Shown: in pieces, positions 57,725-59,259 of the stretch
Layout: each line of letters starts with the position of its first letter
Numbering within the stretch: the first letter of the stretch is position 1
Assembly: GCF_003018255.1 (NCBI RefSeq)
Contig: NZ_CP027440.1
DNA: 64,000 bases
Strand: one strand, 5' to 3'
Origin: Escherichia coli
GTDB lineage: Bacteria > Pseudomonadota > Gammaproteobacteria > Enterobacterales > Enterobacteriaceae
The notes under the pieces: generated by a model
The model's database searches: none
The model's input: the letters and a program-made list of their open reading frames with translations, nothing else
What the model was told of the DNA's origin: nothing
Translations under genes and position numbers: made by a program

Positions 57725-59056
57725 GTGGTAAAGGAACGTAAAACCGAGCTGGTCGAGGGATTCCGCCATTCGGTTCCCTATATCAATACCCACCGGGGAA
57801 AAACATTTGTCATCATGCTCGGCGGTGAAGCCATTGAGCATGAGAATTTCTCCAGTATCGTTAATGATATCGGGTTGTTGCACAGCCTCGGCATCCGTCT
57901 GGTGGTGGTCTATGGCGCACGTCCGCAGATCGACGCAAATCTGGCTGCGCATCACCACGAACCGCTGTATCACAAGAATATACGTGTGACCGACGCCAAA
58001 ACACTGGAACTGGTGAAGCAGGCTGCGGGAACATTGCAACTGGATATTACTGCTCGCCTGTCGATGAGTCTCAATAACACGCCGCTACAGGGCGCGCATA
58101 TCAACGTCGTCAGTGGCAATTTTATTATCGCCCAGCCGCTGGGCGTCGATGACGGCGTGGATTACTGCCATAGCGGGCGTATCCGGCGGATTGATGAAGA
58201 CGCGATCCATCGTCAACTGGACAGCGGTGCAATAGTGCTAATGGGGCCGGTCGCTGTTTCAGTCACTGGCGAGAGCTTTAATCTGACCTCGGAAGAGATT
58301 GCCACTCAACTGGCCATCAAACTGAAAGCTGAAAAGATGATTGGTTTTTGCTCTTCCCAGGGCGTCACTAATGACGACGGTGATATTGTCTCCGAACTTT
58401 TCCCTAACGAAGCGCAAGCACGGGTAGAAGCCCAGGAAGAGAAAGGTGATTACAACTCCGGTACGGTGCGCTTTTTGCGTGGCGCAGTGAAAGCCTGCCG
58501 CAGCGGCGTGCGTCGCTGTCATTTAATCAGTTATCAGGAAGATGGCGCGCTATTGCAAGAGTTGTTCTCACGCGACGGTATCGGTACGCAGATTGTGATG
58601 GAAAGCGCCGAGCAGATTCGTCGCGCAACAATCAACGATATTGGCGGTATTCTGGAGTTGATTCGCCCGCTGGAGCAGCAAGGTATTCTGGTACGCCGTT
58701 CTCGCGAGCAGCTAGAGATGGAAATCGACAAATTCACCATTATTCAGCGCGATAACACGACTATTGCCTGCGCCGCGCTCTATCCGTTCCCGGAAGAGAA
58801 GATTGGGGAAATGGCCTGTGTGGCAGTTCACCCGGATTACCGCAGCTCATCAAGGGGCGAGGTTCTGCTGGAACGCATTGCCGCTCAGGCGAAGCAGAGC
58901 GGCTTAAGCAAATTGTTTGTGCTGACCACGCGCAGTATTCACTGGTTCCAGGAACGTGGATTTACCCCGGTGGATATTGATTTACTCCCCGAGAGCAAAA
59001 AGCAGTTGTACAACTACCAGCGTAAATCCAAAGTGTTGATGGCGGATTTGGGGTAA
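57725..59056 (+). CDS. argA: Amino-acid N-acetyltransferase (N-acetylglutamate synthase)
   Basis: Start at GTG 57725 ([33 protein letters not shown]...), 443 aa; the track extension from 57659 is non-native. Confidence 0.93.
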
Positions 59057-59259
59057 GTGGTGGAAATCGCCAGATGCGACATGCGCAATGCCTGGAGGCA
59101 TGATAAACACGCTAGCATCGCATCAGGTATTGACGCTCATCGTCGGATGCGGCGTGAACGCCTTATCCGACCTACATCAAATCAAAGGTGTTGATGGCGG
59201 ATTTAGGGTAAGCGACGGAAATCGCCAGATGCGCATATGCGCAATGCCCGGAGGCATGA
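59031..59259. repeat. REP/BIME region with an imperfect direct duplication (about 73 bp) of the argA 3' end
   Basis: 59031-59103 and 59185-59259 are about 90% identical, flanking a canonical REP palindrome gtcggatgcggcgtgaacgccttatccgacctac (59142-59175). Confidence 0.7.

Follow-up and report, generated by a model that had tools for sequence, protein, structure and literature searches.

A duplicated argA 3' end in the REP-containing spacer between argA and recD of Escherichia coli

The spacer between the convergent genes argA and recD in an Escherichia coli chromosome (assembly GCF_003018255.1, contig NZ_CP027440.1, of which a stretch of 64,000 nt, here called the window, was analyzed) is an ordinary structural variant at a REP/BIME hot spot, in which the last codons of argA and the non-coding unit behind them occur twice, with an intact Y-type REP between the copies. 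The variant is best explained, with good though not full confidence, by one old illegitimate duplication inside a BIME array that evolved neutrally afterwards and now forms a lineage-restricted structural allele.

Extent and anatomy of the duplication

Gapped local alignment of the spacer with itself places the direct repeat at 59024-59135 and 59179-59292, with 95 of 114 columns identical (83%) and two gaps. The alignment scores 129, as opposed to a mean of 16.8 (sd 2.3) and a maximum of 30 in 500 shuffles, so the duplicated argA 3' end noticed in an earlier, sequence-only reading of this DNA is real and its similarity lies far above chance. A repeat search divides it into three collinear blocks with offsets of 155-157 nt, namely 59024-59078 with 59179-59233 (55 nt, 89%), 59081-59103 with 59237-59259 (23 nt, 96%) and 59107-59140 with 59264-59297 (34 nt, 74%). 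The extent first given, 59031-59103 and 59185-59259 at about 90% identity, holds as the high-identity core and falls short as the full repeat, which begins 7 nt before that start and continues for about 32 nt past that end at lower identity. The coding part had likewise been put at about 27 nt; with the argA stop codon at 59054-59056 it amounts to 33 nt, and the duplicate contains these last 33 nt of argA, stop codon included, plus about 80 nt of spacer. A 25-nt probe from the argA tail has exactly two sites in the 64-kb window, one in each repeat copy, with none expected, and apart from this duplication the window has one short-range direct repeat, a triple tRNA gene.

The copies do not abut, being separated by the 13-nt linker, the 34-nt Y REP and 3 nt more (59129-59178). 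The stretch 59136-59178 has no counterpart beyond copy 2, the alignment stopping at 59135/59292, and the join is therefore not that of a simple head-to-tail tandem duplication. Since only linker and REP are found between the copies, insertion of an element can be set aside. The parts of the spacer are listed below; the two flanking open reading frames are named argA and recD because they are so annotated in genomes identical to the window.

59024-59135, plus strand: repeat copy 1, made of the real argA tail, leader, degenerate Y REP head and Z2 REP (local alignment, repeat search)
59024-59056, plus strand: last 33 nt of argA, stop codon TAA at 59054-59056 (ORF ending at 59056, translation, annotation of identical genomes)
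59057-59068, plus strand: leader 1, GTGGTGGAAATC, the 12 nt from the argA stop to the first REP head (sequence; homologous leader in all alleles)
59069-59080, plus strand: internally deleted Y-type REP head, GCCAGATGCGAC, which pairs with the Z2a head (E. whittamii has an intact Y REP at this position; hairpin in the fold)
59094-59130, minus strand: Z2a, a degenerate Z2-like REP (fuzzy match to the Z2 consensus with 6 substitutions plus indels; part of the naRNA4-model match at 59097-59172)
59129-59141, plus strand: full linker, ATTGACGCTCATC, 13 nt, sharing the last 2 nt of Z2a
59131-59141, plus strand: linker core from Z2a to the Y REP (near-identical to the linker ATTGGCACTCATC inside the E. 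whittamii array)
59142-59175, plus strand: intact Y-type REP, GTCGGATGCGGCGTGAACGCCTTATCCGACCTAC, 34 nt (inverted repeat, fold, copies with 100% identity elsewhere in other genomes)
59176-59178, plus strand: 3-nt join between Y REP tail and pseudo-tail, ATC here and GGA in variant 2 (alignment of the window with strain 120899)
59179-59292, plus strand: repeat copy 2, made of the pseudo-argA tail, leader, degenerate Y head and Z2 REP (repeat search, local alignment)
59179-59211, plus strand: pseudo-argA tail, non-coding (in-frame TGA upstream at 59155-59157; two 1-nt deletions in the variant 2 homologue)
59212-59223, plus strand: leader 2, GCGACGGAAATC (sequence, alignment)
from 59224, plus strand: second deleted Y head
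59250-59288, minus strand: Z2b, a Z2-like REP (junction with the recD end as in single-copy alleles; alignments)
59294-59296, minus strand: recD stop codon (ORF list; recD annotation in identical genomes)
59294-61120, minus strand: recD open reading frame (ORF list)

Several landmarks of the surrounding region can also be named. The three tandem tRNA genes in 23245-23574 (Rfam tRNA at 23247-23320, 23357-23430 and 23467-23540) correspond to metZ/metW/metV. The distance from these genes to amiC is about 75 nt in K-12 and strain 120899 and about 32.7 kb in the window (amiC at about 56240), and 23575-56240 is a strain-variable island beside a tRNA-Met gene; in strains of the window's type, PTS EIIC and PRD-domain genes adjoin amiC. 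The small-RNA genes CsrB (180-539, minus strand) and GcvB (18718-18923, plus strand) are full length, score above the Rfam thresholds and are ordinary landmarks of the region.

REP and BIME identity

The assignment to Z2 rather than Z1 and the subtype labels come from matches to REP consensus sequences and are approximate; the REP nature of the elements is shown independently of these consensus sequences by a stable palindromic fold, identical dispersed copies and an end-to-end alignment with the Rfam model naRNA4. The arms of the Y REP palindrome (59142-59155 and 59158-59171) are 86% complementary, and its fold of -19.5 kcal/mol (z -4.7) was never equalled by shuffles. A CTAC or GTAG tetranucleotide at the foot of the stem is a REP feature (PMC3333891) and is present here in CCGACCTAC at 59167-59175. 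Furthermore, 59142-59176 is 100% identical to sequences at unrelated loci in other E. coli genomes, with a median of 9 matching places per genome. The canonical REP unit that had been read at 59142-59175 is thereby confirmed as a palindrome with 14-bp arms. It is not isolated, since together with the inverted Z2a (59094-59130) it forms a BIME-type pair, and this pair is what naRNA4 (RF02564) aligns with from end to end, at 59097-59172 with 54.6 bits, below the gathering score of 59.5 bits; a scan of the whole window at the gathering threshold accordingly lists no naRNA4.

Across the window spacer, Y and Z2 REPs alternate in orientation as they do in BIME-2. The canonical tandem form of BIME-2, in which the REP pair recurs with a short S linker and flanking s/l/r motifs, is absent from the window and present in the E. 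whittamii array described below. In the window, pseudo-argA tail and leader occupy the place that linker and Z2 would have in the middle unit, and internal deletions affect two of the Y REPs. The window spacer is not a canonical tandem BIME-2 array and is best seen as a derivative of one. In the long alleles, Y elements one and three have their internal deletion in common, which identifies them as copies of each other rather than independent BIME units.

Alleles and frequency in E. coli

Among 5,426 complete E. coli genomes, the argA-recD spacer belongs to a length class of 61 bp (K-12), 81 bp or 237 bp. Most strains, K-12 included, carry a single unit in a 61- or 81-bp spacer, the 61-bp allele being the 81-bp allele minus 20 nt within Z2, and both single-copy alleles align to one unit of the long form. 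In an evenly spaced sample of 40 records, the short form was spanned by 32, the medium form by 6 and the long form by 1. The window is 100% identical to E. coli JNE23-011 at the spacer, and a query across the join, which is unique to the long form, was covered in 131 genomes. With about 130 matches for each junction-spanning query, the long architecture is present in about 130 of the 5,426 genomes, or roughly 2% (2.4%). Comparison of the same spacer in other E. coli genomes, which had been suggested as a check, hence upholds the duplication and at the same time shows that it is not private to one strain.

The long allele exists in two versions: variant 1, that of the window, in about 97 genomes, and variant 2 in 33 genomes, namely strain 120899 and 32 others, which surfaced in a search with the E. 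whittamii spacer. A sub-variant of the window's version with two SNPs is also present. Over the junction-spanning stretch, the two variants are about 88.5% identical. In strain 120899, the order of the parts and the position of the join after CCGACCTAC are those of the window, and a C is missing from the pseudo-tail where the window's pseudo-tail differs as well. Given this shared order, join position and missing C, a single origin of the long allele appears most economical, an argument drawn mainly from the common architecture. Earlier, the repeat had been proposed as a BIME-mediated local duplication that might mark a past rearrangement next to recD. The tie to the BIME and a past rearrangement between argA and recD are both borne out, and the notion of a simple local event gives way to an architecture held by about 130 genomes in two versions.

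The spacer in related species

When one genome per species was scanned for the C-terminal codons of argA, 39 loci were obtained in Escherichia, Citrobacter, Salmonella, Enterobacter and others, and none of the 39 has two argA tails or the codons AAA-TCA-AAG. Escherichia albertii and Escherichia sp. MOD1-EC7003 carry one unit that resembles the 81-bp E. coli allele. The E. whittamii spacer (record L029, 4907-5190) is a clean threefold tandem array in which a Y REP, a 10-nt linker, a Z2 REP and a 13-nt linker follow one another; its internal Z2-linker-Y junction differs from window positions 59110-59175 at 3 of 64 positions. One unit in K-12 and three in E. whittamii make the argA-recD gap a BIME site that varies within the genus. 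How many tandem BIMEs a locus carries is known to differ from one E. coli strain to another (PMC3333891). No E. whittamii-type array lacking the pseudo-tail was found in the 5,426 E. coli genomes at megablast sensitivity and at least 80% query coverage.

Three further observations come from these comparisons. The E. whittamii array offers a handy reference for the ancestral state of the argA-recD locus. In the record of E. coli strain SCPM-O-B-8794, the 3' part of argA is about 8% diverged from E. coli, a distance equal to that of E. whittamii, and the spacer shows yet another REP arrangement; the record (L012) probably represents a cryptic Escherichia clade rather than E. coli proper. The degenerate argA-tail pattern also matched four Bacteroidales MAG contigs (L014, L022, L031 and L038).

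Divergence and decay of the copies

While the two copies differ by 17% in the window, they are identical at 100 of 107 positions in variant 2, continuously through Z2. The possibility that the true duplicate is limited to the first 80 nt or so, the Z2 part being mere REP-family likeness, was considered and is ruled out by this continuity. Each window copy lies 16-20% from every single-copy E. coli spacer, which is about the distance of the E. albertii spacer from them, and the flanking argA diverges by about 1% among E. coli. With copies 17% apart beside a gene that differs by about 1%, the duplication is therefore either old or has a complicated history. A single in-situ duplication inside E. 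coli would need very fast evolution of the spacer, conversion from other REP loci, or an origin beyond the E. coli sampled. Window and strain 104 share an identical long spacer despite flanks that differ by 1.1%.

The neighboring recD/recB region (59693-62192) has been made a mosaic by recombination, in which local tracts diverge by 5-8% between E. coli strains. Window and strain 104 differ at 34 of 1000 positions in 59693-60692 and are identical in argA; in 60693-61192, the window lies 5-6.6% from K-12, ECONIH2 and F2_407 and is identical to strain 104. In one 300-nt recD/recB bin the window is 8% from other E. coli, a distance equal to that from other Escherichia species. Introgression from a sampled Escherichia was considered and rejected: in sliding bins the flanks form a mosaic, with no donor among E. 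whittamii, E. albertii, Escherichia sp. MOD1-EC7003 and SCPM-O-B-8794.

The pseudo-tail cannot be translated, as it lies beyond the argA stop and behind the in-frame TGA at 59155-59157. In variant 2 it has suffered two frame-breaking 1-nt deletions, which show the decay of the duplicate to be unconstrained. Purifying selection on the pseudo-tail was entertained when its three differences in the window looked synonymous, and was dropped since variant 2 lacks a nucleotide at the same spot and has a second deletion; three such sites are in any case too few for significance. The TCA-AAG of the window pseudo-tail is explained more simply by loss of the C that variant 2 lacks too and gain of a G. 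Among the four copies of the two variants, only five sites are informative, of which three group the copies by allele, one by position and one is crossed. Gene conversion between the copies may have taken place, these few sites being thin data for it. Copy 1 of the window version has 11 private changes, mostly within its Z2 REP, that were perhaps acquired by conversion from another REP locus.

Hairpins and possible function

Pairing between the Y head and the Z2 head of a unit gives every allele a long hairpin that extends from about 12 nt past the argA stop to about 5 nt before the recD stop. Its predicted stability is -28.4 kcal/mol (z -4.7) for the K-12 unit, -30.4 kcal/mol (z -2.0) for window copy 2 and -23.0 kcal/mol (z -0.9) for window copy 1, the last being no better than shuffles. 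REP hairpins have a generally established role as mRNA 3'-end structures (PMC3333891), and on a plain reading of these folds the unit hairpin would provide such a structure for both convergent transcripts, argA and recD. The long allele leaves both genes intact and one hairpin beside each of them, so that little or no phenotypic effect is expected and the allele is probably close to neutral under selection.

It had been suggested that the second copy supplies an alternative 3' end for argA mRNA. More broadly, it could serve as an alternative 3' end for argA or recD mRNA, as a regulatory structure or as the source of a small product, and two points speak for such a role: on either strand the entire spacer has a more stable fold than its shuffles (z -3.2 and -4.8), and REPs near stop codons are reported to affect mRNA stability and translation. 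It is nevertheless very unlikely. Leader and first hairpin stand beside the argA stop in all alleles, and the duplication adds nothing there; the copy 1 hairpin does not exceed shuffles; the pseudo-tail has no usable frame, and in variant 2 deletions break it; nothing resembling a promoter or an intrinsic terminator was detected in 58800-59500; no Rfam family reaches threshold over the spacer; and at 2.4% the allele is rare. The suggestion of an alternative argA 3' end thus finds no support, and nothing points to a function other than the one that ordinary REP hairpins have.

Origin of the duplication

The most probable course of events starts from a basic unit that is present once in most Escherichia and consists of the leader, a Y head with an internal deletion and a Z2 REP in inverted orientation. 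An ancestor would have carried an additional linker and Y REP (at least leader, deleted Y head, Z2, linker and Y), that is, a small tandem BIME array like that of E. whittamii. Illegitimate recombination, unequal exchange or a template switch at this hairpin-rich site would then have joined the DNA just past the Y REP tail to argA, 33 nt ahead of its stop, with the result that the argA tail and the unit were duplicated together. Against this course stand the divergence of the copies beside a little-changed argA, the small number of informative sites, the failure to find an E. coli allele with the array and no pseudo-tail in the search described above, and a join that has no clear microhomology. 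Being located behind the real stop and untranslated, the downstream argA tail would have decayed and the copies would have diverged, possibly with some gene conversion, the argA mRNA retaining the hairpin of copy 1 and the recD mRNA that of copy 2.

Direct copies at a distance of 155 nt in a hairpin-rich region prone to replication errors might suggest a recent tandem duplication by slipped-strand mispairing, in this strain or its near kin. This is extremely improbable, as the copies are only 83% identical, 43-48 nt of non-repeated linker and REP intervene, the spacer is the same in the window and strain 104 with flanks 1.1% apart, and about 130 genomes and two diverged versions carry the duplication. 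Another possibility is a chimera of two diverged alleles, in which imported Escherichia DNA was joined out of register and the pseudo-tail is the resident argA tail. The distance of both copies from the single-copy E. coli spacers, which the E. albertii spacer shares, would fit such an import, as would the mosaic nature of argA-recD-recB with its 5-8% tracts and the first 40 nt or so of the recD 3' end in variant 2, which by eye look identical to E. whittamii. The copies, however, have derived states in common that single-copy alleles lack, in variant 1 CCAGATG and GCC-GG-AGGCATGA; in 300-nt bins, no sampled species comes near the flank of either variant; and metagenomes searched with CGNAAATCAAAGGTGTTGATGGC for a genuine argA that ends like the pseudo-tail, in CGN-AAA-TCA-AAG-GTG, gave 0 hits. 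The seemingly synonymous changes in the pseudo-tail are also better read as the C deletion common with variant 2 plus the G insertion. A chimera is hence considered unlikely.

Just as doubtful is a duplication made by TnpA-REP/RAYT through cuts between C and T in the CTAC tail of the Y REP and in argA, strand transfer then adding a BIME unit together with the argA 3' end; the BIME amplification reaction that has been proposed would here have run on into coding DNA. Here, the repeat join directly behind the Y REP tail is suggestive, and GACC-TACA at 59169-59176, with the cut at the hyphen, agrees with the published type II iREP cleavage consensus (G/T-G/T/A-C-C before the cut and T-A-C-A/C/G after it; PMC3333891). 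In vitro, TnpA-REP needs only CT, cuts at CT more than 400 nt from a BIME and performs strand transfer (PMC3333891). The sole CT near the repeat start in argA is that of AAC-TAC, cut between 59014 and 59015, 9 nt upstream of the repeat start. The product predicted from these cuts, GACC followed by TACCAGCGTAAATCC, differs from both observed joins, CTAC-ATC-AAATC in the window and CTAC-GGA-AAATC in variant 2. The GGA of variant 2 is similar to the GCA with which the E. whittamii linker opens, and this would place the break 3 nt past CTAC, where no CT occurs. Moreover, the GTAG box of the Z2 REP is reported to be essential for binding of TnpA-REP (PMC3333891), and the boxes of the neighboring Z2 elements are degenerate (GGAG; CAAG and CAGG in variant 2); a chance CTAC within 10 nt is not rare either, at roughly 8% by the present estimate. 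An extended form, in which the long allele is a natural footprint of a domesticated TnpA-REP/RAYT that amplifies a BIME unit and, by its loose C-T specificity, captures the 3' end of a neighboring gene, is a shade less likely still. Under it, the event may have happened more than once, giving one architecture with different 3-nt joins in the two versions. If true, an origin by RAYT would be a sign in vivo of a reaction that has been demonstrated to date in vitro alone, and BIME dynamics would have a way to remodel gene ends.

The long allele adds a further instance of structural polymorphism concentrated in REP/BIME clusters between convergent genes, and it illustrates that a BIME-associated rearrangement can copy coding sequence with neither gene damaged. 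For annotation, the second argA end should not be taken as a functional gene fragment. The two diverged versions, at about 2% of genomes, provide a simple lineage marker at argA-recD, and models of BIME amplification might be tested on this naturally occurring join at the Y REP tail.

Comparison with known systems

Integrating elements leave duplicated gene 3' ends, as in the case of icd and prophage e14. As there, the 3' end of argA occurs twice in direct orientation, with one functional copy and one leftover; unlike there, 43-48 nt without integrase or cargo separate the copies and non-coding spacer is duplicated as well. REP-mediated tandem duplications of the chromosome with REPs at the join occur in Salmonella and E. 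coli, where they arise by REP-REP recombination, span kilobases or more and are unstable. The window resembles them in having a REP exactly at the join of the copies, whereas its duplication measures 155 bp, has only one end at a REP, is old and is fixed in lineages. Literature searches on duplications with REP join points and on REP effects near stop codons gave nothing directly usable. To the naRNA4/REP325 type of BIME RNA, the inverted Z2a/Y pair is linked by its end-to-end alignment with the model; the score below gathering marks this as generic BIME resemblance and not as the REP325 locus. The closest parallel is found in BIME-2 tandem arrays, in which Y and Z2 REPs alternate in opposed orientation between convergent genes and the structure varies by strain and species. 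From these the window departs in that its repeat unit takes in 33 nt of upstream coding sequence and the leader, that two of its three Y elements are the same internal-deletion derivative, and that at the join the pseudo-argA tail stands in place of the canonical short linker.
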